A DNA stretch of 49,094 nucleotides from an uncultured Melioribacter sp. (GCA_964477915.1 CAYZGB010000003.1:1-49094), one strand, 5' to 3'. Counted from the stretch's first letter, positions 20,952-44,116 are shown. Notes: generated by a model not told the origin, from the sequence alone. Program-made: numbers and translations.

Positions 20952-23633
20952 CTATAAAATTTCTTTTAACGTTTTTACAAGTTTATCCTTCAATATTGGT
21001 TTGGGAACAAATGCATCGAAACCGGCATCAAGGTAACGTTCTTGGTCGCCAGGCATCATATAAGCCGTAGAAGCAATAACGGGAACATTTTTGTATGAAG
21101 GTAAATTTCTAATTTCGCGTAAAGCTTCAAGTCCGTTGTAATCGCCCATTAAATTTATATCCATTACAATAAAATCAAATTTTTTCGTTCGCAAAATCGG
21201 GAGTGCATCTTCGAACCGAGCAAATACTTCAATCTCTTTTAATTCTTTCATTTGTTGTTTAAATAGCAGTTGTGAATCTACTTGGTCTTCCAAAAGTAAA
21301 CATCTCAAATCATTTAATTTAACTTCTTTTTCCTGTTTTACAATTGGAGTTGTGCTAACTCTCGATTTATTTTGTACAGGAACTTGTTGATTTGAGATAT
21401 TTTTAGCAGCAACTCTTTCTTCGGCGTTTATTCCAATGTTCGGTTTATTTTCGGCTTTAATTGAGTTTACTTCCGGTTTAGTTGCCTTTTTGTTAGTTGC
21501 AACAATTGTTTCTATGCTCTTAGGAAATTTTGCACCAAAACCAACAATAGAACCGTGCTTTTCAACTTCAGAAAAATCAACGCCAAGTAAATCAGAAAGC
21601 TTACGGAAAAGGCGAACGGCAAATCTTGAAACATTATAATTACGACGAACAATCGCTTCGTCTTCGGTTAAGTATTCATTCATCGCTTTTAGTAAATTAT
21701 CGGAAATTCCGGATTTCAAATCTTTAACATAAATCAAAACCCGGTCGTTATCCGGTTGGGCAGAAAGGTAAACTTGTTCTTCTTTAGTTCCACGAATTGC
21801 AAATTCCCAAAGCTGCGAAAGAAACATTATTGTTAAGTGTTTATCGTTATTTAAAACAATGGAGGAAGAAATTTTTCCGTACTTAAGTTCAACGTTACTT
21901 GCTTTAGCAATTTTTTTAACGTTCTCCTCTATTTTATCGAGAATTTCGACAAAGCCAAATTCTTCCGGTTTAATTCTAATCTGGTTCTGTTCAATTGCAG
22001 CATATTCGGTAGCTGCATCAATTAGTTGCATTAATGCTTGTTGATTTTCGGAAATAATTTGTGCCGATTCTTTTTGTTCGGGCGTCGGATTTTCAAGGCT
22101 TTCGAGTAATTCTTGAGTAAATCCTATTATTACATTTATCGGTGTTAAAATTTCGTGGAACAAGTGCGAAAGAAATGAAACATCAATTGAAGAACTCGAC
22201 TTATTTTCGTTTGTCGGAATTTCTACATTAGTTTTTCTTTCCAACTGATTTTGAATTTTAATAATTATTGAATAACCGGTTAGTTCCTCAAAAACATCGA
22301 ATAAAGGAATAGAAAGCATTTCGGAATTAAGAACCTTGCCGGTTTTTGTTTTAAGTGAAATTTGTGCTTCAATGTTTTCCGTAGTATGATTCAAAAATAT
22401 TTTTTTATTTATCTTCGATCTTTCTTTTTCGGAAAGCAACGAAATAAATGTTTTATTCTCCAATTCGCTTAATGAATATCCCAAATGTTTTTCGGCAGAT
22501 GAATTTACCTTAGAAATAAAACCATCAGCATCGGTTTCTATTACAAGTTCGTTAGCAAAGCTTAATATTGTATTCAACTCGCGCTGAGCTTTGTTAATTT
22601 CGGCAAGTTTTGTAATATCTTTAACAAAAGTTAAAATTGCTTTGCGTCCTTCAAACTCCAATTCCTTCCTTTTTAGTTGAACAACTACAATTGAACCATC
22701 AGATAATTTATGACGTACAGGTTTTTCAAATACCGTATCATCTAACTCCGTATAATCAATAAGGGATTGAATATCTTCCGGCAAATACAAATCGGTTAAA
22801 TCCATTTGCAAAAATTTATCGAGAGGATAACCGTAAAATTTAATTGCAGCCTTATTAACCGAAAGGAATTTTAAGTTTTCCTCATCATAAATAAAAAGCG
22901 GGTAAGGACTGGTGTCTAATATTTTGTCAATCATATTCAAAACCGAAATTTTTGATAAATTTTTATTTTTTTCTTCTTCGAAAATAATTAAAGTTGCAAT
23001 AAAAACATTTTGAGAATTAAATATTTTTTTTACCTTAACTTGAACATCGTTTTCAACATCCTTAAAAATCTTAATACGGGATGAAAATTCCTCTTGCTCA
23101 GGGTCAAGTAAAAATTCGTTTATTTGCGAGGAAAAATCATTAGGGAAAACTTCATTTATCCGAAGACCAATTTCCAGCGGAGTTTCTTCAAATATTTTAG
23201 CAAAATTTTTGCTGTATTTAGCTAACATTCCCTGATAATTAAAAAGTGCTGCTGCAATTGGTAATTCTTCAAATGCTTTAAGAATATAATTAAACTCACT
23301 ATCGTATATTGAAATAGCTTCGTTTGGTTGGATTAATCCACAGCTTGCAACAACTTCGTTATTTGAACTAATAATAGGAATTTTAATTATTTTATAATGA
23401 ATAGAGTCTTTTTCCTCAAAAACAAAATTTTCGGTAACTGCAATTGTTTTGGTTTTTTCAAGCAGCTCGTTTAAAACCGCAATTTGCTTTACAACTGAAT
23501 TTTGAAAAGCATTTTTTTCTTCATTACCGGTAATTGTAGATATTGATGAAAATTTTTCTGTTTCGGAATTCGCAATTATAATTTTTCCATTTTTATCTGC
23601 TAACCAAAAAGCAATAGAAATTTTATTCAACAA
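20952..23633 (-). CDS. PAS-domain hybrid sensor histidine kinase / response regulator (main body; true 5' end probably at 24088, see poly(A) interruption)
   Basis: Several PAS-like modules, H-box FLSHLFHEILTPINVIIGF and a C-terminal receiver (LLLEDQ ... FIVMDINL ... ASTA ... PKP). The frame stays open for 114 start-less codons upstream of the listed TTG. Confidence 0.8.
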   Translation of the reverse strand: MLNKISIAFWLADKNGKIIIANSETEKFSSISTITGNEEKNAFQNSVVKQIAVLNELLEKTKTIAVTENFVFEEKDSIHYKIIKIPIISSNNEVVASCGLIQPNEAISIYDSEFNYILKAFEELPIAAALFNYQGMLAKYSKNFAKIFEETPLEIGLRINEVFPNDFSSQINEFLLDPEQEEFSSRIKIFKDVENDVQVKVKKIFNSQNVFIATLIIFEEEKNKNLSKISVLNMIDKILDTSPYPLFIYDEENLKFLSVNKAAIKFYGYPLDKFLQMDLTDLYLPEDIQSLIDYTELDDTVFEKPVRHKLSDGSIVVVQLKRKELEFEGRKAILTFVKDITKLAEINKAQRELNTILSFANELVIETDADGFISKVNSSAEKHLGYSLSELENKTFISLLSEKERSKINKKIFLNHTTENIEAQISLKTKTGKVLNSEMLSIPLFDVFEELTGYSIIIKIQNQLERKTNVEIPTNENKSSSSIDVSFLSHLFHEILTPINVIIGFTQELLESLENPTPEQKESAQIISENQQALMQLIDAATEYAAIEQNQIRIKPEEFGFVEILDKIEENVKKIAKASNVELKYGKISSSIVLNNDKHLTIMFLSQLWEFAIRGTKEEQVYLSAQPDNDRVLIYVKDLKSGISDNLLKAMNEYLTEDEAIVRRNYNVSRFAVRLFRKLSDLLGVDFSEVEKHGSIVGFGAKFPKSIETIVATNKKATKPEVNSIKAENKPNIGINAEERVAAKNISNQQVPVQNKSRVSTTPIVKQEKEVKLNDLRCLLLEDQVDSQLLFKQQMKELKEIEVFARFEDALPILRTKKFDFIVMDINLMGDYNGLEALREIRNLPSYKNVPVIASTAYMMPGDQERYLDAGFDAFVPKPILKDKLVKTLKEIL

Positions 23634-23926
23634 AGATAAAACTTGTTGTTTTTCGATTAAAGAAAGTGGAAAACTTTTTCGAATAATATCTAATACAGAA
23701 ACTAAATCTTTATTTGGAATAAGTTGCTCAACCCGTTCGATATTAATTTTGAAATTTGCCTGATTTAATTCAAGAGTTGGGGAAACATCTAAAATTAATA
23801 AAAACTTTTGATTTTGAAGTGGAAAAACAGAAACGTTGATTAATTCTTTTTCACCGGCAATATTTGTAAGACGGATCTTATCGAGAAATGGTGACTTTGA
23901 GTGGGTAATTTTTTCCCAGTGTTCAG

Positions 23927-24088
23927 TTATGTCCGAATTTTTTTTTTTAATAAGGAAATTACATCCAATCCGGGATTAACTTTAGAACCTAAAACAAATT
24001 CCATTGAAGAGTTGGTTGCAATAATGTGTCCGTTTTTATCAATGATTACTGATGGCTTACTAATATTTATTAACAATTCGGAATACAT
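23927..24088 (-). CDS. 53-codon 5' fragment of the sensor kinase gene (first half of an N-terminal PAS domain), out of frame with the main body
   Basis: ATG 24088 lies 2 nt after the upstream gene's stop. The translation MYSELLINISKPSVIIDKNGHIIATNSSMEFVLGSKVNPGLDVISLLKKKIRT* ends just after the A11 tract. Confidence 0.6.
   Translation of the reverse strand: MYSELLINISKPSVIIDKNGHIIATNSSMEFVLGSKVNPGLDVISLLKKKIRT
23938..23948 (-). repeat. Homopolymer tract: 11 A on the coding (minus) strand, 11 T on the plus strand
   Basis: Counted directly from ...gtccgaa + 11 t + aataagg.... It is the junction between the two reading frames of the kinase gene. Confidence 0.95.
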
Positions 24089-24090
24089 TT

Positions 24091-25884
24091 TTACTTTTTC
24101 TTACTTGGAATTTGTACAGTAATAATATCAGTCCAATCCGAAACAGATTCTTCGCTTGCAGCACGAACTCGATAATCGTACGTGGTACCGCGGTAAACAC
24201 CTTCATCATTGAATGTAGTAACATTAGGTGCAACTACTCCAACACGTTCAAACTGACCACCACCGGTAAATCTTCTTTCAATTTCAAACCAACCTTCGTT
24301 ATGTGAATTATCAAGCCAGGTTAAAATTACACGTGGCGTTGGATCAGCAACCGCTTGCAAATTAGTAGGTGCAATAAGCGGTGTTCTGGCTTCGTTAGTA
24401 AAACCGGAATAAAGTGTATTTTTAAATGCTCTAACTTTGAAGTAATAAACAGTATCGCGATTAAGTCCGGCAACCGTATAATTTGTAGTGTTTGCAGATA
24501 ATGTTTTGAATAAAGTGAAATCGTGTGTAGCCGTTGCTTGCCAAATTTCAAAACCGTCTTCATCAGTGGAATTATCATTCCAACTTAATAAAAATGCAGT
24601 TCCGGGAGATAACTCCGAAATTGTTAAATTACTTGGATTTTTAGGCGGAAGGATTGGTACGTAAGCAGTATCTTCGTTCGAAAACATAGAATACGAACCG
24701 TTACCGGATAAATAACGAACTCTGTAAACATAAGTAAATCCAGGTGTGTAATTCGAATCGTAGAAAACCGTTTCATCCGGTCCAGTGGAAGCAATGCTTT
24801 CAAATAAATTTTCCGAACCGTAAATTTTTCTTTGGATCTGAGTCCCAAATTCCATATTCGAATTATCGTTCCACGTAAGTTTAACTTTTCGTGCATCCAT
24901 ATCGAACTGAGCAAGCAAGTTTGTCGGAGGCTGAATTGAAGATGAGCTTGTACGTACCGTCGTAATATTCGAGCTTGGCATACTGCTTGGAAGTACAGCA
25001 AATACTTGATAAGCATATACCGTGTTTGGTTGTAATCCTTCGTCAAAATATTCTATGGTATTAGGCGGAACAGTCGCAGCATCAACCCAATTTGTGTAAT
25101 CACCATTATTATCGATAGTTGTTCTTTTTACAAGAAAGGCATTTTCACTAACCGAATTATCTTTCCAAATTAGACGAACAACAGTAGCACCAAGTGCTTC
25201 GGCTCTCAAATCGGTTGGAGCATCTCTACCACTTTCTCCGTTCGAGCTTACTTCATTCGAAAACTTGGAATAACCGTATTGATTTTTAGCACGAACTTTA
25301 TAATAATAAGCAGTATAAGAATCTAACCCAATATCCCGATAATTCGTTGTATTTTCGTTGAAAACTTTGTAGGGCTCTCCACCATAGCTTTCGTTATCTC
25401 CAACGCTTCTCCAAAGTTCATACATATTTTCATTATTCGAATTGTCTTTCCAGCGGAGCAAAACTTCGTGTTCGTTAAATGTTGATAAAATTAAATCGGA
25501 AGGTGCACGGGGAACACCGGTTACATAAACTTTTTGTACTTTGCTTTGCGATATTCCACCACCGTCTTTGTAGCCGTTAATGTAATATTCTATTGTTGAA
25601 CCAATTGCATCCTCGGTAACAGTAAAATATAGGCTTGAATCCGAAACAAATGTACCGACTGAATGCCCCTCTACAAAAATTTCGTATAAACCAATTGAAG
25701 CATTGTGAGTTTCAAGTAAAACATCGTTTTTCCCAACGTAAACCGTATCACCGGTTATGGGGTATGCAATATTTAAAACTTCTGTTTCTCCCGGAGGATT
25801 TGAAACAGCTTCCACGCATCCGTAGGAAATTACAAATACGGGGAGAAGTACAAGAAACAGTAAAAATATTCTATTTTTTTTCAT
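24091..25884 (-). CDS. Secreted (possibly lipo-)protein with five fibronectin type III repeats
   Basis: Signal peptide MKKNRIFLLFLVLLPVFVISYGC. Five repeats carry W-x-D-N-S-x-x-E (RWKDNSNNE, IWKDNSVSE, TWNDNSNME, SWNDNSTDE, TWLDNSHNE). Alternative ATGs lie at 25896 and 25905. Confidence 0.75.
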   Translation of the reverse strand: MKKNRIFLLFLVLLPVFVISYGCVEAVSNPPGETEVLNIAYPITGDTVYVGKNDVLLETHNASIGLYEIFVEGHSVGTFVSDSSLYFTVTEDAIGSTIEYYINGYKDGGGISQSKVQKVYVTGVPRAPSDLILSTFNEHEVLLRWKDNSNNENMYELWRSVGDNESYGGEPYKVFNENTTNYRDIGLDSYTAYYYKVRAKNQYGYSKFSNEVSSNGESGRDAPTDLRAEALGATVVRLIWKDNSVSENAFLVKRTTIDNNGDYTNWVDAATVPPNTIEYFDEGLQPNTVYAYQVFAVLPSSMPSSNITTVRTSSSSIQPPTNLLAQFDMDARKVKLTWNDNSNMEFGTQIQRKIYGSENLFESIASTGPDETVFYDSNYTPGFTYVYRVRYLSGNGSYSMFSNEDTAYVPILPPKNPSNLTISELSPGTAFLLSWNDNSTDEDGFEIWQATATHDFTLFKTLSANTTNYTVAGLNRDTVYYFKVRAFKNTLYSGFTNEARTPLIAPTNLQAVADPTPRVILTWLDNSHNEGWFEIERRFTGGGQFERVGVVAPNVTTFNDEGVYRGTTYDYRVRAASEESVSDWTDIITVQIPSKKK

Positions 25885-27853
25885 TAATATTTTCATAATC
25901 AACAAGTAATGAACGTGTATCGTGACTTTCTAATTTATCAACATAAAGATACAAAATTTGTGTTTTATTATCGTATTTGTATTCATCAATTTTGGTATTA
26001 ATAATATCCGATGATAGTTTTACATTATAAACGGGTTTATTTATAAATATTTTTACAACAAAATTATACATATCATCATCGCTTGGGTTCGAAATTTCAA
26101 CGGCTAATCTTCGTTTGCTTCTAACATCCAATCTTATTTCAACTCCGTGTTTACGGAACCACCAATCTTTTAATCCGTCTATCGAAGTAACCCAAATATT
26201 TTTTTCTTGCAAATATTTTAATACTTTTTTCAAAACAGCAATGTTTTCCGCACGAAGTTGACCGTCCGTATGAATTTTAAGAATATACAATCCACCGGTA
26301 AATTTTATTCTATCAATATCTTCATAATAAGTGTACTCTTGGAATTCCGGTTCTTTCAAATGAAAATCTCGTAAAATTACATAATCGTCTCGCGAAGTAT
26401 TGGAAATCACAAGAATTTTCTTACCGCCATAAATCTCCGTTTTTGGAACTAATCGATCTATTAATGAATCGGCAAAAATTACATCCATATCGTTTTGGGA
26501 CATAACTTGCAATGTGGATTTGTCAAAAAATCCATAAAGCGGCATAATTTTAGTAACTTTTGTTCCAAGTACGGAATCGGCAAGATTTTTCGCATTAAGA
26601 ATAACTGCCCGCTGTTCATCTAAACTACTTAATTTATTCGTGGTATCTAATAAAGATTCCTTGTAACCTAAATCGACAATTAATCCTATATCTCTTGTTT
26701 GGGAAACATTTCGTAATTGTTTTTTCAATAAATTCACATTGTCAACACTTGTAAATATTGAAGAAGTAAAATCAGTAAAACTAGATAATGCACTTAGGTT
26801 TTTGAAATTTTGCGGCTCTTTATCTATTACAGGAACAAATATTGCAGCAGCAACGTAAGGTGAGGGCCAATCGATAAATTGAACCGTTGGACGATAAAGT
26901 AACCAATTTAGAGAGCTTGTAAATAATCTATCGAAATAAATGTAATCTTCTTGCCCGCCAATAACGGAATTGAGTTCAAATCCGTACCAAACAAATCTTC
27001 CTTTACCATACGTTCCATATGCAATGCCTGCACTTTTTTGGATATTTTCGAGAACAAGTCCACGTTCGTGACGGAAATCGTACCAATAACTAGCCTGAAT
27101 TGTTCGTGGTTCAAGAACTTCGGCATAAATTGGTCTATCCCATGTTGCAATATTAAGTGTATATCCGGTTGGCACACCGGCTGTAATAGGTAAATTGCCT
27201 CTAATTGTGTGAATTCTTCGAGTTCCTTCCTCCGGGTCAATCTCTTTGGTAAATTTCAAACCAAAAACTTCTGTAAAGAAATTCCAACCGTCCCATTTCC
27301 CATCAGGAGAAAAAGTTGCGATTCCGGTTGTTGCAAATAAGCTCCCGCCCTTTTTCAAAAATTTTCTGATTTGAACTTTTTCTCTATCACTAATTGCTTT
27401 TGCTCCGGGAGCAATCAGTAATTTGTATTTAGATAAAACTCCAACTTCAATATCCAAATCCGTAATTAAATCGTATTTAACTTTATGACTATTGAGGAAA
27501 TTTTCCCACGTCGAAACAATATCGCTAATCCAAGTACTGCCCTCCGGTAAAATATTTTCCGTAAAACCGGAATAAAGTAAAGCAACTTGCGTTCTTTCTT
27601 CTAAAGCTGCTTTGATATTCTTTTCAGTTGGAGCAATTTCATCAATTTCAATTCTTCCGAAAGCACCTTGAATAATCAGCAAATAAAACATTATTCCGGC
27701 AACCAATAGAGCAACACCGCCGAAAATAATTATCAATAAATTTACCCGAAGTCCTTTAATCTTATTTTCTTCATCAAATTGTTCTTCGGTATTATCAACA
27801 TTAACCGGTTTGTTTTCAGGTTTCTTTTTCCGTTTCCAGAATTTTAACGCCAC
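25871..27853 (-). CDS. Single-pass membrane-anchored periplasmic protein: GATase1/ThuA-like domain plus CE4 (polysaccharide deacetylase)-like C-terminal domain
   Basis: Basic N-terminus plus a TM segment (LLIIIFGGVALLVAGIMFYLLII). The middle region is KLLIAPGAKAISDREKVQIRKFLKKGGSLFATT ... YGKGRFVWYGFEL. The C-terminal layout ends GGLYILKIHTDG ... LQEKNIWVTSIDGLKDWW. Domain calls are by eye. Confidence 0.6.
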   Translation of the reverse strand: MALKFWKRKKKPENKPVNVDNTEEQFDEENKIKGLRVNLLIIIFGGVALLVAGIMFYLLIIQGAFGRIEIDEIAPTEKNIKAALEERTQVALLYSGFTENILPEGSTWISDIVSTWENFLNSHKVKYDLITDLDIEVGVLSKYKLLIAPGAKAISDREKVQIRKFLKKGGSLFATTGIATFSPDGKWDGWNFFTEVFGLKFTKEIDPEEGTRRIHTIRGNLPITAGVPTGYTLNIATWDRPIYAEVLEPRTIQASYWYDFRHERGLVLENIQKSAGIAYGTYGKGRFVWYGFELNSVIGGQEDYIYFDRLFTSSLNWLLYRPTVQFIDWPSPYVAAAIFVPVIDKEPQNFKNLSALSSFTDFTSSIFTSVDNVNLLKKQLRNVSQTRDIGLIVDLGYKESLLDTTNKLSSLDEQRAVILNAKNLADSVLGTKVTKIMPLYGFFDKSTLQVMSQNDMDVIFADSLIDRLVPKTEIYGGKKILVISNTSRDDYVILRDFHLKEPEFQEYTYYEDIDRIKFTGGLYILKIHTDGQLRAENIAVLKKVLKYLQEKNIWVTSIDGLKDWWFRKHGVEIRLDVRSKRRLAVEISNPSDDDMYNFVVKIFINKPVYNVKLSSDIINTKIDEYKYDNKTQILYLYVDKLESHDTRSLLVDYENINEKK

Positions 27854-39722: not shown

Positions 39723-41057
39723 TTATTGAAAATTTTCCGTAAGATGATTTTTTGCTAAAATAAAAACTTCTTTCCAATTATCTATTTGTGGTTGACGGAA
39801 AATAGTTATTGAAGGATACCATGTTGATTTACTTTCATCCATTCCCCAGCGCCAATCGTGATTTTTAGAAAGCAAGAGTAAAACCGGTTTTCCCATTGCA
39901 CCGGATAGATGTGGAATAACTGTATCGGTAGTAATAATTAAATCGAGATTATCAATAATAGCGGCGGTATCCGAAAAATCTTTTAGATATTCGGATAAAT
40001 TCACGACTTCATTTTCGAGTAAAAACTCTTTTTCGCGATCAAAAATATCTTTTTGCAAAGAGAAAAAAACTGTGTTTTTTATTTCAAATATTTCCTTAAA
40101 GAATTTAACATTCGTCGAGCGAATATGATTTTTTGCAAATGTTGGATTTCCACGCCACGCGATGCCTATCTTTTTTTTGTCAGTATTTAACAAAGCACGC
40201 CATCGTTCGGATTTTTCTTTATCAGCAAAAATATACGGAATATCAATTGGGATATTTTCTTTATTAATCTTTAAAGCATAAGGCAAACTCATTAACGGAA
40301 TTTGCAAATCGTATTTTGACATTGGTGAAAAGTCCGGACGCGTTGGGACAACTCGGTCAATAAAATCAACGTTTTTGAGCAATCCTAATAATTCAATTTG
40401 AACTTCTAGAATTATTTCTCCAACTCTTTCCTTTGCAATTTTCAAAAATCGGATAAATTGAATTACATCACCGAAGCCTTGATCCGCATAAACATAAAGA
40501 GTTTTATCTTTTGCCACTTCCCCGTTCCAACGTTTGCCCGGCAATTCTTTCCGCTTTAATTCATCACTTTTAAATCGATATTCGAAAAGTTCAAATCCTT
40601 TTTCGTAATTACCGGTTAATAAATATAGCATTGACAAATTGTAATATGCGGAATAATAATCTGGATTTATCTTAATTGAGATTTCGTACTCCGAAATTGC
40701 TTCGAAAACTTTTCCACTTTCGGCAAGTGCCAAAGCATAATTGTAATGTGCCAAATAATTTTTTGGATCTCTTTCAACAGCTTGACGGAAATAATTTAAG
40801 GCAATATCAATATCTCCTTTACGAAAGAATGCTATCCCCAAATTAATTAGTGGTGTTGCCGAGTTTGTTTCAATTTCCGAGACCTTTTTTAGTTTTTCAA
40901 CTGCTTTCGAAAAATCGCCCGTCTGCAAATAAACAAAAGCAAGTAAATTAAGGACTCCCGTATTACCCGGTTCTTCAACCTCTTTATTTACAAGTAATTT
41001 TCTCGCTTCCGAAAATTTTCCTTCGTTTAATAAAGATTTTATTTCAACTGGAATCAT
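39723..41057 (-). CDS. TPR-repeat protein fused to a GT9 (heptosyltransferase-like, GT-B) domain
   Basis: N-terminal TPRs, then YADQGFGDVIQFIRFLKIAKE, IAWRGNP...N.IRS and TTDTVIPHLSGAMGKPVLLLLSKNHDWRWG. Confidence 0.75.
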   Translation of the reverse strand: MIPVEIKSLLNEGKFSEARKLLVNKEVEEPGNTGVLNLLAFVYLQTGDFSKAVEKLKKVSEIETNSATPLINLGIAFFRKGDIDIALNYFRQAVERDPKNYLAHYNYALALAESGKVFEAISEYEISIKINPDYYSAYYNLSMLYLLTGNYEKGFELFEYRFKSDELKRKELPGKRWNGEVAKDKTLYVYADQGFGDVIQFIRFLKIAKERVGEIILEVQIELLGLLKNVDFIDRVVPTRPDFSPMSKYDLQIPLMSLPYALKINKENIPIDIPYIFADKEKSERWRALLNTDKKKIGIAWRGNPTFAKNHIRSTNVKFFKEIFEIKNTVFFSLQKDIFDREKEFLLENEVVNLSEYLKDFSDTAAIIDNLDLIITTDTVIPHLSGAMGKPVLLLLSKNHDWRWGMDESKSTWYPSITIFRQPQIDNWKEVFILAKNHLTENFQ

Positions 41058-44000
41058 TTTTCACCTTCCAAAACTTTGAGTAATCTATTCTCCAATTCAC
41101 TTATTACGCTATCCCAATTTCCGTATTCTTTTTGACGTAACAAAATAGCGCTCGGGTAAAACTTTGTCTTTTCACCGGCAGAACCCCATCTCCAATCGGG
41201 ACTGTAATGCAATAACCCAATTGACTTTTTCCCCAATGCTCCCGCAAGATGAAGAAACACTGTGTCAATCGAAATAATCAAATCCATTGTATTCATTAGT
41301 TTGGCAATTGAATAAAAATCCGTAAAATATTTTTCTTCCCAAATAACATTGCTAAATTTATTGATAAAAGAAAATTCTTCATTGTTTAATTCTTTTTGTA
41401 ATAAATAAAATTCTAAATTTTTGTGTGCAAATAAATTTTCAAATCTCTTTAAATCCAAATGCCTTTTTCTTTGATGTACAGGGAAAGGATTACCTCTCCA
41501 AGCAATAGCAATTTTAGGTCTATCGGTTTTGATTGAAAATTTTTCATCTACGTCAATATATTTTCCCGGTGAAAATATTTTACGAAATACCTTGTAATAA
41601 AGGGGGAAAAGCGAAACAACCGGAATTGAATAATCATAGTTAGCAGCATTAACATAATTTATATTTAACGCTTCGTAAATAAATTTTTGCTTTTCAAATA
41701 ACGGAACAAGAGAATCTCGAACCGCTACTGATATTTTATTTTTTTGTGCAAAAGGAATAACGAACCTGATGAATTGAATTGTATCGCCTATTCCTTGTTC
41801 CTCAAAAATTAAGATATTTTTGTTTTCAAGTTCATTTAATTTTTCCGGTAATCTCGGATTTATTAACGGCGGATTTATTTTAAATCGTGCGTCGTAAAAA
41901 TCAAATCCTTCTTCAAATTTATTTTGCGAAAATTTAACTTCGGATAGAGCCAATTTGTATTCCGCTTTTTCTTCGATAGATAATGCGGTAATAATTTCTC
42001 GCTCAGCTTTTTCAAATTCCTTTTCCTCTTGAAAAATCAAGCCTAAATTGTAATGCAATTCGGCATCGTCTTTATTTTCAGTTAATAGTTTAATATAAAT
42101 TTCTTTTGCATTTTTAATTTCGCCAATTGTATAAAACACAGAAGCAAGATTAAACCAAGCGTAATAATAACTTGGCGAAAGCGAAATTGCTTTGGTGTAA
42201 TATTTTATTGCATCAGAGAAGTTTTCTTTTTCAACAAAAAATTTACCTAATAAGAAATTAATTTTCGCAGAATTCCCAAACGTGGATTTTATTTTATCGA
42301 GATTACGTTCGAAGTTTTGCAATTCACCAGTAGTTAGCAACAACAACAAATAATTGTAATAAATATCTTCCGATAGAACATCGGGGAAAAGTTTTTCGTA
42401 AAACTTGCGTGCCTCTTTCAATTGCCCGAGTTTATGGTAAGCGAGTGCAATGTTAAAAATAATTTCATTCGACTCGTTTCCATTATTGTATGCCTCCAAA
42501 AGTATTTTCAATCCTTCTTGCATTTTGCCGATTGAGAACAAATGCAATGCGTTGTTCAGAAAAATTTCAGCCGTTTCGTTTACATCAACAATTTGATTAT
42601 TTGATTTTCCAAATCTTTCTTTCAACGTCAAAGAAACTTTTTTCAAAACATCATTCCAATTTCCTAATTTATCTTGAATAAACATTTCAACATTATTGTA
42701 CCAATCGGTTTGTTTTCCGTCTTGCCAACGCCAATCGGAATTTTTGGGAAGCAAAAGCAAAGTATTGATTTTTAAAGTTAAGGCAAGATGAACAATTGCA
42801 GTATCAACTGAAACAAGTAAATCAATTTCGGGAAGTAATTTCGCAGTATCAAAAAAATCGTTTATCGATTCGGATAAATCAATAATTCCGTGTTTACTTA
42901 AAATCGCTTTTTCTTCCTCAGTAGGGGTCGGCTCAAACGAATAAATTTCGCATTTGCAATTTTCGAATGCACTTAATAATTGAGCTAATTTTATTGAACG
43001 ATATTTATCATTTTCGTGATTTGCATTTCCCCGCCAAAAAATTCCAACACGATTTTGAGTTAATTTAACATTTGATTTTTGAACATCGAAAAGAGATGAA
43101 GCTAACGAAACATTTTCAGCATTTAATAAAAACGGCAAACTTAACAACGAAATTTTACAATCGTAATTTTTTAATTCAGAATTTTCTTCATCCCTAATAA
43201 AAACAGCATCAAAAAGACCGCTCGCTTCAAAAAGCCTTGCCAGGGCTTTACGAACTACAATCCCAATTTTTTTCGCATTTACATATTTTACAAAGCGAAG
43301 GAATTGAATTGAGTCACCAAAACCTTGCTCTTCGTAGAAAAGAATTTTTAAGTTACTTGCATTCGTTAAATTTTCACATTCAGGTAATTGAATTAAATTT
43401 TGAAAATAATCTTTTTTTCGTTTCCGCCATTCGAATTCTTCCCAAGCCTTGCCGTAACGCCCGAACCTCAATAAAATCAAGGATTTGTTCCAATGTGCCT
43501 CGGCAAATCCGGGATTAATATTAATTGCTTTATCATAAAATTCTAATGCCTTCTCGTATTCGTAAAGTTTTTCGTACAGCACTCCAATATTGTAATAAAT
43601 TGAATCTTCTTCGGAATAACCGGTTGATAAAGATTTTTCAAAAAGTTGAATCGCATTTTTGTATTCACTATTCATTCTCTTAATCGATGCTAACAAATAA
43701 TATGCTTCCGGGAAATGATTATTGACTTCTAGTATTTGATTTAACAAGGCTTCCGCTTTATTGAATTTTTCGGCTTCAAAATAGTTCTTTGCCGCATTAT
43801 ATAAAAAAGAGATTTCATCTTTATTTATTTCGAACAAATCAAAGTAAGTTTGAGCTGCACGAATTTTATTTCCACTCTTTTCGTATGCTTTTGCAAGTAT
43901 GCTTAATAATTGGGGAAAAGTTTTGTTTAGTTGGTTTTCTTCAATAAAATCAATAACCTTTTTAGCTCCGCCACGTTTAATTTTTTTTTCGAGGAATGTT

Positions 44001-44116
44001 AAAAATTTGCTTGAAATTTTTTCATTGTTAAAAATATCGGTAAGAATTAATACAACATTGCCCTCTCTGTTTGTCAATAAGCTTTCAAAATCAATATTTT
44101 CAACCTCCTCTTTCAT
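41054..44116 (-). CDS. Tandem (TPR-GT9) x 2 fusion protein
   Basis: Two copies of the same module. Copy 1 has YEEQGFGDSIQFLRF ... FWRGNANHEND ... VSVDTAIVHLALTL...DWRWQ. Copy 2 has FEEQGIGDTIQFIRF ... AWRGNPFPVHQ ... ISIDTVFLHLAGALG...DWRWG. Each copy is preceded by TPRs. Confidence 0.75.
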   Translation of the reverse strand: MKEEVENIDFESLLTNREGNVVLILTDIFNNEKISSKFLTFLEKKIKRGGAKKVIDFIEENQLNKTFPQLLSILAKAYEKSGNKIRAAQTYFDLFEINKDEISFLYNAAKNYFEAEKFNKAEALLNQILEVNNHFPEAYYLLASIKRMNSEYKNAIQLFEKSLSTGYSEEDSIYYNIGVLYEKLYEYEKALEFYDKAININPGFAEAHWNKSLILLRFGRYGKAWEEFEWRKRKKDYFQNLIQLPECENLTNASNLKILFYEEQGFGDSIQFLRFVKYVNAKKIGIVVRKALARLFEASGLFDAVFIRDEENSELKNYDCKISLLSLPFLLNAENVSLASSLFDVQKSNVKLTQNRVGIFWRGNANHENDKYRSIKLAQLLSAFENCKCEIYSFEPTPTEEEKAILSKHGIIDLSESINDFFDTAKLLPEIDLLVSVDTAIVHLALTLKINTLLLLPKNSDWRWQDGKQTDWYNNVEMFIQDKLGNWNDVLKKVSLTLKERFGKSNNQIVDVNETAEIFLNNALHLFSIGKMQEGLKILLEAYNNGNESNEIIFNIALAYHKLGQLKEARKFYEKLFPDVLSEDIYYNYLLLLLTTGELQNFERNLDKIKSTFGNSAKINFLLGKFFVEKENFSDAIKYYTKAISLSPSYYYAWFNLASVFYTIGEIKNAKEIYIKLLTENKDDAELHYNLGLIFQEEKEFEKAEREIITALSIEEKAEYKLALSEVKFSQNKFEEGFDFYDARFKINPPLINPRLPEKLNELENKNILIFEEQGIGDTIQFIRFVIPFAQKNKISVAVRDSLVPLFEKQKFIYEALNINYVNAANYDYSIPVVSLFPLYYKVFRKIFSPGKYIDVDEKFSIKTDRPKIAIAWRGNPFPVHQRKRHLDLKRFENLFAHKNLEFYLLQKELNNEEFSFINKFSNVIWEEKYFTDFYSIAKLMNTMDLIISIDTVFLHLAGALGKKSIGLLHYSPDWRWGSAGEKTKFYPSAILLRQKEYGNWDSVISELENRLLKVLEGEK

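Follow-up and report, generated by a model that had tools for sequence, protein, structure and literature searches.

The stretch of DNA analyzed here (the window) comprises 49,094 nucleotides from an uncultured Melioribacter sp. (GCA_964477915.1 CAYZGB010000003.1:1-49094). The element under study is a sensor kinase gene on its minus strand, in which a run of 11 adenines (A11) separates two reading frames. An initial annotation of the window had read this tract as splitting the N-terminal PAS domain of the kinase and had named programmed slippage, a stochastic phase switch, a plain mutational frameshift, and a sequencing error as candidate explanations. The following features make up the junction, with positions counted over the whole window.

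23927-24088, minus strand: open reading frame 1 (ORF1, the zero frame), with ATG at 24088-24086, 53 codons (MYSELL...SLLKKKIRT), and TAA at 23929-23927
23938-23948, minus strand: A11 slippery tract, read as TT[A AAA AAA AAA A]TT in the zero frame, where a -1 shift or +1 A is needed
23927-23929, minus strand: zero-frame stop TAA, 3 codons past the tract
20952-23975, minus strand: -1 (kinase) frame, open from 23975 to the stop at 20954-20952 and read after the shift from 23939 on
23634-23939, minus strand: segment between the tract and the earliest potential start codon, holding the second half of the first PAS domain (PAS-1) and a helical linker (amino acids [aa] 51-152 of the fused product)

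The ATG of ORF1 at 24088 lies 2 nt past the TAA of the upstream gene, which encodes an FN3-repeat protein (24091-25905, minus strand). Relative to the ATG frame, the kinase frame is shifted by -1, and its first ATG, GTG, or TTG codon is the TTG at 23633, 114 codons after 23975. The annotated gene call starts at this TTG and is 893 aa long. With one additional A (TTA AAA AAA AAA AAT TCG ...), the two frames become an uninterrupted product of 1045 aa, whose junction sequence is ...DVISLLKKKNSDITE. Rereading the window bore out the initial annotation on each of these points: the ATG 2 nt past the upstream stop, the 53 codons, the A11 at 23938-23948, the 114 codons without a start, and the fused length of about 1045 aa. 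The remaining wrong frame is also closed, by a TGA 4 codons past the tract. Within the zero frame, the heptamer A_AAA_AAA occurs twice in UUA AAA AAA AAA.

The A11 tract is the longest homopolymer in the 34%-GC window, where A/T runs of 7, 8, 9, 10, and 11 nt number 43, 14, 2, 0, and 1, respectively. Since these counts drop roughly 3-fold per step, the length of the tract alone is only mildly unusual and is not beyond chance in a sequence so rich in A and T. What is beyond chance is the position of the tract and its conservation.

The fused product has the architecture PAS-PAS-PAS-PAS-HisKA-(degenerate CA)-REC, that of a hybrid sensor kinase of ~1045 aa (CA, catalytic and ATP-binding domain; REC, receiver domain). 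Its domains were assigned with Pfam, Foldseek, and AlphaFold2 (AF2), the last for PAS-1 with a multiple-sequence alignment (MSA).

23787-24088, minus strand: PAS-1, fused aa 1-101, spanning both frames; AF2 with MSA, and Foldseek
23325-23633, minus strand: PAS-2-like domain, fused aa ~153-255; low-confidence AF2 model, Foldseek matches to tandem-PAS proteins
22260-22931, minus strand: two Pfam PAS domains, fused aa 387-610
21987-22175, minus strand: HisKA phospho-acceptor domain, fused aa 639-701; Pfam E value of 1e-9, H-box FHEILTPIN
20967-21299, minus strand: C-terminal receiver (REC) domain, fused aa 931-1041; Pfam Response_reg E value of 2e-16

The claim that the tract splits an N-terminal PAS domain found no support in Pfam, where fused aa 1-152 gave no PAS match at an E value of ≤1, but it was upheld by structure prediction. 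With an MSA that contained no fused relatives, AF2 modeled aa 1-101 in canonical PAS topology with a predicted local distance difference test score (pLDDT) of 83. The model comprises strands at 13-16, 21-25, 68-75, 81-90, and 96-101 and helices at 27-33, 43-48, and 54-64, and the three lysines encoded by the tract (KKK, 48-50) fall between helices. When the model was compared to the Protein Data Bank with Foldseek, the top 50 matches were all PAS or LOV domains, at target-normalized template-modeling scores of 0.6 to 0.73. This MSA-based run replaced a single-sequence AF2 model of aa 1-260, which was poor (pLDDT of 47). PAS-1 is thus a PAS domain too diverged in sequence for the Pfam PAS models. 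ORF1 supplies its N-terminal half, consisting of the N-cap helix, strands A and B, and helices C to E, and the annotated TTG start at 23633 sits at the beginning of the PAS-2-like domain.

Homologous proteins gave the same picture of a single domain. When the kinase frame from 23975 was used as query in an exhaustive HMMER search, 107 relatives were recovered, most of them 1050 to 1200 aa long and most with ~40 to 50 residues N-terminal of the point equivalent to the tract. A hidden Markov model (HMM) built from the N termini of 11 uninterrupted homologs matched ORF1 alone over aa 8-39 (19.7 bits; E = 2.5e-8 in single-sequence space, Z=1) and matched the +1A fusion colinearly through the tract with 85 bits. 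In an alignment of 41 sequences, the fusion was colinear with 36 uninterrupted homologs, with junction gaps of at most 1 residue. A word-index protein search with the fused N terminus returned no matches, and at such divergence it has no 5-mers in common with its relatives. Because the HMM match runs through the junction, the alignment is colinear, and the two halves form a single PAS fold, the two frames are one ancestral ORF. In the 41-sequence alignment, the columns of the KKK motif lie in a loop and vary across the wider family; the motif is therefore no requirement at the protein level.

The region between the phospho-acceptor and receiver domains also departs from the canonical kinase pattern. 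The fusion gave no Pfam HATPase_c match. Fused aa 702-930 (21300-21986, minus strand) align with the CA domains of SrrB and HK853, and an alignment with the noncanonical kinases RetS and DivL is obtained as well. In the aligned region the Asn of the N-box is replaced (LWEFAIRGT versus LIDNASRYT in SrrB), and the G boxes look degenerate. Judged from these motifs, the protein may be a RetS-like pseudo-kinase or a phosphorelay partner rather than an autokinase.

The initial annotation had pointed to related genomes as a place to compare the tract. The four closest protein clusters are 54 to 56% identical to the kinase, and all are annotated short, at 955 to 967 aa. In the DNA of each, an ORF of ~50 codons begins where the FN3 gene stops and closes with (L/V)-K-K-K on a poly(A) tract. 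A sixth lineage, Melioribacteraceae bacterium S143_55 (L014), was found when genomes were scanned with the five fused N termini in aligned form; an earlier scan of genome contigs with a single protein query had given no match. The tracts are as follows, with each lineage named by the label of its locus.

Window: TTA AAA AAA AAA ATT, A11
L002: TTA AAA AAA AAA GCC CTG, A10
L003: TTA AAA AAA AAA GCC TTG, A10
L004: TTA AAA AAA AAA GCC ATG, A10
L005: GTA AAA AAA AAA GTC TAA, A10
L014: GTA AAA AAA AAA GTC TGA, A10

The five further lineages thus carry A10 at the same offset, and all six need exactly a -1 shift or one added A. The relatives have A10 rather than A11 because the next codon of their -1 frame is AGC or AGT and not AAT. 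Their zero-frame stop follows 1 to 9 codons past the tract, and their -1 frame runs from KKK-S into the kinase. T plus A10 is invariant in 11 of 11 columns, compared with about 10 of 90 columns around it. The L004 lineage has five assemblies, each with A10: one NCBI metagenome-assembled genome (MAG), two JGI metagenomes, one ENA MEGAHIT contig, and the GTDB representative "uncultured Melioribacter sp."; two of the five are MEGAHIT contigs by their k141/k151 names. All members of the protein clusters have the shortened lengths, and an in-frame allele is not on record.

Gene callers split the gene in L002, in L003 to L011, in L013 and L014, and in the window, leaving a "hypothetical" ORF of 53 to 76 aa and a kinase with an internal start. 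The kinase calls are 893, 955, 963, or 967 aa long. Since their starts are arbitrary and lie at nonhomologous columns, every public protein record for the gene has an incorrect N terminus.

The depth of the conservation was gauged from sequence divergence. Five lineages with full-length sequence are 52 to 62% identical in amino acids over the fused kinase and 63 to 74% over the FN3 neighbor, and L014 is ~73 to 75% identical to L005 over its partial sequence. The GC content of the locus ranges from 34% to 42% across the lineages. Synonymous sites are saturated in every segment (pS of 0.72 to 0.74). Across lineages, pN/pS was 0.61 for ORF1, 0.56 for the 102 codons from the tract to PAS-2, and 0.38 for the rest. 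The L005/L014 pair (dS of 0.8 to 1.3) gave dN/dS values of 0.11 for ORF1, 0.16 from the tract to PAS-2, and 0.17 for the comparable part of the rest. Both halves of PAS-1 are therefore under purifying selection and are as constrained as the rest of the protein. Despite the saturation, ORF1 and the 102 to 103 codons past the tract are open in their own frames in every tract-bearing lineage. No ATG, GTG, or TTG occurs between the tract and PAS-2 in the window, and none is conserved there in the relatives. Since the selected segment has no start codon, it can be translated only by ribosomes that come from the ATG at 24088 and change frame. This combination of open frames and constraint indicates that the frame change is required and selected.

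These measurements bear directly on two other ways to read the locus. One, which corresponds to the plain mutational frameshift of the initial annotation, is that the 5' end is decaying: an inactivating frameshift would have left ORF1 as a remnant, with a shorter kinase lacking PAS-1 made from the TTG at 23633. That TTG does lie exactly at the beginning of PAS-2, gene callers do annotate the internal start, and a distant relative naturally lacks PAS-1. Decay is nevertheless very improbable, given that both segments stay open in their own frames in every lineage with the tract, that their dN/dS values of 0.11 to 0.16 are as low as in the rest of the gene, and that the tract is conserved and an internal start is not. 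The other reading is a split PAS domain, in which ORF1 and a downstream protein, produced by termination and reinitiation at a noncanonical codon, would reassemble. Selection on both halves and the closeness of the zero-frame stop to the tract would suit such an arrangement. It is the least probable reading of all, however, in that the stop follows the tract at anything from 1 to 9 codons, no canonical start lies close by, and an invariant A10-11 is left unexplained. We also know of no precedent for a PAS domain split at this helix.

Tract length within the species of the window was assessed from MAGs and from public sequencing runs; the run check covers the window species at the level of assembled contigs. 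Seven independent observations (three MAGs and four run assemblies) all have A11. The two further MAGs, from NCBI (L010 and L011), are 99.2 to 99.4% identical to the window. Two studies contributed four public runs that contain the locus, among them a 2019 hydrothermal-vent metagenome, and independently built contigs of these runs span the tract at 86x, 83x, 10x, and 5.5x with several single-nucleotide polymorphisms (SNPs) and no indel. In the run with 83x coverage (X2), SNP bubbles at ~30x were kept and no bubble in tract length was present. Strains that differ by 0.3 to 0.8% in flanking SNPs have the same tract length. A scan of metagenome contigs yielded only L001, a 99%-identical fragment that begins downstream of the tract.

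One candidate tract variant in run X2, an apparent joint (23959>24541) with a loose end at 23939, was rejected, as it traced to one unrelated Logan contig. This contig shares 21 nt of T-run sequence (23939-23959), joins 24541-24564, and continues into unrelated sequence on both sides; its depth fully explains the excess in the bin (71.5 x 21/41 = 36.6). The contig is either a chance match in low-complexity sequence or a chimera and not a deletion or a variant of the tract.

Had the tract been under-called, with one more A in truth everywhere, the gene would be an ordinary one. Long homopolymers are the classic site of such errors, and every case here would need exactly +1. The four run assemblies, from k-mer assembly of two studies, all read A11 and not the clean A12 of an intact gene. 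Tract lengths in the sister lineages likewise agree between MEGAHIT contigs (k141/k151) and two JGI metagenome assemblies. The other A/T runs of 8 or 9 nt within coding sequence at these loci are all in frame; there is therefore no general homopolymer problem. An error would also give no reason for an otherwise variable loop to be encoded by an unbroken A tract in all six lineages, whose synonymous sites are saturated. The sequencing error raised in the initial annotation is consequently a highly unlikely explanation.

The same survey speaks to phase variation, in which replication slippage would toggle the tract and the assemblies would happen to show the OFF state. Homopolymers of at least 10 nt are mutable, and the neighboring genes appear to build a surface polysaccharide, a typical phase-variable trait (PMC3711429). 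However, no in-frame (ON) allele and no length variant were present among 13 assemblies and four run assemblies from six lineages, the length is the same in strains that differ by flanking SNPs, run X2 has no tract bubble, and, of the two possible OFF frames, every lineage has the same one. The proposed stochastic switch can thus be given very little credence.

Taken together, these data are best explained by one hybrid kinase of ~1045 aa whose frame is deliberately broken within PAS-1 at a conserved poly(A) tract and which would be made by programmed recoding. We place the probability of this reading at roughly 0.8. Programmed slippage, which the initial annotation had listed among its candidates, is the one that gained from the comparison, with the same tract and the same -1 offset in six lineages and selection on both sides. 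Standard decoding would yield only the 53-aa half-PAS peptide, and a fraction of expression events would shift by -1 at the tract and give the full-length kinase. By analogy with characterized sites, slippage by RNA polymerase that adds one A is most likely the mechanism: on A10-11 the polymerase would slip and insert one A in part of the transcripts, a process termed programmed transcriptional realignment. On runs of at least 9 A, bacterial RNA polymerase adds or drops A's efficiently without any further signal (PMC5009743, PMC4256274). RNA polymerase is favored since such runs slip unaided, since tssM1 and dnaX provide precedents, and since no ribosomal stimulator was found.

Ribosomal frameshifting by -1 on A_AAA_AAA may contribute as well. 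In its purely translational form, which is nested within the recoding reading, transcripts would be faithfully A11 and the ribosome would perform the whole shift. A perfect X_XXY_YYZ heptamer is in the zero frame in six of six lineages, A_AAA_AAA is a proven shift site in some insertion sequence (IS) elements (PMC4066793), and the product would be identical to that of +1A, since both routes would give the junction ...L-K-K-K-N/S.... Signals that usually accompany such sites were sought. The 98 nt 3' of the tract, folded for the window RNA, have a free energy of -12.8 kcal/mol versus a shuffle mean of -12.5 (z = -0.10), which is no excess structure; the tract region has no Rfam match, and the 45 nt upstream of the tract hold no conserved Shine-Dalgarno (SD)-like or purine-rich block at a fixed distance. 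Furthermore, A10-11 should produce heterogeneous transcripts in any case, as runs of at least 9 A slip unaided (PMC5009743, PMC4256274). The tract also exceeds the requirement of the heptamer by 3 to 4 nt, although this counts for little when AAA is the favored codon for Lys. An exclusively ribosomal mechanism therefore seems unlikely, though it is considerably better placed than the error, switch, decay, and split-domain explanations.

Several points weigh against programmed recoding or its details. The evidence consists of DNA sequence and predicted protein throughout, from which we infer slippage, the machine responsible, its efficiency, and its purpose, and nothing computed separates transcriptional from ribosomal slippage. 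Lys codons are 78 to 85% AAA in these genes; given KKK, part of the conservation of the tract therefore comes cheaply. Tract lengths were taken from assembled contigs, beneath which low-frequency length variants in the DNA could lie. Finally, the distant relative P0114 (L012), 36% identical, has neither PAS-1 nor the poly(A) site, so that PAS-1 can be lost and is not indispensable in the family. According to the initial annotation, orthologs that start at the internal TTG and lack the upstream PAS half would have refuted its reading; this was not borne out, as the close orthologs keep that half and it is the distant P0114 that does not have it. At that locus (L012:1-3471; ENA ERZ23498684), the kinase starts 3 nt past the FN3 stop, at the linker before PAS-2, in the same gene neighborhood.

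Several known systems resemble this locus in part. In tssM1, a type VI secretion system gene of Citrobacter rodentium, an A11 tract gives about 20% transcriptional frameshifting (Gueguen et al. 2014, PMC4256274). Like the kinase gene, tssM1 is a chromosomal, nonmobile gene broken just past an A11 that codes for Lys-Lys-Lys, and its full-length product needs an extra A in the mRNA. The short and long products of tssM1 are both functional and their ratio matters, whereas the 53-aa half-domain encoded here would probably not fold. The tssM1 site is known from a single species and one Yersinia case and has been proven experimentally, in contrast to the present site, which occurs in six deeply diverged lineages and is deduced from sequence.

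A second parallel is dnaX, which carries A9 in Thermus thermophilus and A10 in the two-ORF dnaX of Chlorobi and is subject to programmed transcriptional realignment (PMC5009743, PMC3711429). In these dnaX genes, as in the kinase gene, a conserved run of 9 to 10 A lies at the frame junction of a cellular gene. The Chlorobi are the phylum nearest to the Ignavibacteriota, their sister group, and their long dnaX product is likewise encoded in two ORFs; this Chlorobi case is itself only predicted. Unlike the sensor kinase, dnaX encodes a clamp-loader subunit, and its recoding leads to two functional subunits, tau and gamma, at about 1:1.

In Buchnera and Blochmannia, poly(A) slippage corrects 12 to 50% of the transcripts of frameshifted genes (summarized in PMC5009743). 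The kinase would share with these genes the retention of function in an out-of-frame gene through slippage on a long poly(A) run. The endosymbiont cases, however, are lineage-specific and are regarded as tolerated decay in tiny, drifting, very AT-rich genomes, whereas the organisms considered here are free-living and have kept the site long enough to saturate synonymous sites. Like Escherichia coli dnaX and IS elements (A_AAA_AAG and A_AAA_AAA; PMC4066793), the locus has an X_XXY_YYZ heptamer of A's in the zero frame and a -1 shift; unlike them, it has a tract longer than the heptamer, and no stimulatory stem-loop or upstream SD-like element was found. With phase-variable contingency loci it shares a long homopolymer in the 5' part of a coding sequence next to surface-structure genes, and it differs from them in that its length is not polymorphic and no assembly has an ON allele.

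At the level of sequence features, the locus has what characterizes programmed transcriptional realignment: a run of at least 9 A at the junction, a colinear product, and conservation of tract and offset together with selection. Full-text literature searches found no earlier report of recoding in sensor or histidine kinases, in Ignavibacteria, or in Melioribacter. The accessible portion of a review on frameshifting and slippage makes no mention of histidine kinases, sensor kinases, or two-component systems. To our knowledge, conserved recoding sites in ordinary bacterial chromosomal genes are few, among them prfB, dnaX, copA, tssM, and some type III secretion system genes. The present case is thus a further example of a known recoding class, in a type of gene for which no earlier report was found.

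A long minus-strand gene cluster (24091-47743), which resembles a surface-polysaccharide system, ends with the kinase gene. That the kinase controls the putative EPS operon, as the initial annotation had supposed, is a hypothesis. The cluster encodes TPR proteins, a GT2-TPR protein, a TPR-GT9 protein, a GH9 glycoside hydrolase, a KaiC-like ATPase, a processive GT2 synthase, and an Ig/FN3 protein with a C-terminal sorting tail of the type IX secretion system. Proteins of 162 aa and 660 aa without a clear family are also encoded, as is the 604-aa FN3-repeat protein, a putative lipoprotein by appearance. In L002 the order of the GT2 protein, the 162-aa and ~660-aa proteins, the FN3 protein, and the kinase is syntenic. 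The FN3 gene precedes the kinase in all relatives, and the gene for the ~660-aa protein is present wherever the contig reaches. In the window, the FN3 gene as listed begins with a TTG and shares 35 nt (25871-25905, minus strand) with the end of the 660-aa ORF that precedes it. The FN3 call in L002 is 590 aa long versus 604 aa here, and the true FN3 start therefore probably lies further downstream.

The second-longest homopolymer inside a gene is at 43981-43989 (T9 on the plus strand, A9 on the minus strand), in frame ~43 codons into the 1020-aa TPR-GT9 gene (41054-44116). This run would be long enough for some transcriptional slippage, which would reduce rather than restore the yield.

For the organism, the predicted consequence of programmed recoding concerns the amount of kinase. 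The half PAS domain encoded in the zero frame is unlikely to function, and the role of the site is therefore probably to keep the kinase yield low and fixed. The kinase would then be held at a fixed low fraction of the upstream surface-polysaccharide genes, with which it would be co-transcribed and translationally coupled. Going by experimentally studied A9 to A11 sites, the yield would perhaps be about 10 to 30%.

The case would add a sensor kinase and a little-studied phylum to bacterial recoding. Its comparative evidence is unusually clean, with six lineages, synonymous sites at saturation, and selection both before and after the tract. A real feature would be lost in pipelines that mark genes of this kind as pseudogenes or "fix" their homopolymers. 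A further proposal, which we advance tentatively and consider somewhat doubtful, is that the poly(A) site is more than a tolerated indel, namely a selected regulatory device for two-component signaling in which slippage would set the dose of a RetS-like hybrid sensor kinase encoded at the 3' end of a long surface-polysaccharide operon, with an efficiency perhaps modulated by temperature, nucleoside triphosphate pools, or elongation rate. If so, the dose of the kinase would be uncoupled from that of the structural genes with which it would be co-transcribed, and bacterial sensor kinases and the Ignavibacteriota would each gain their first described case of conserved recoding.

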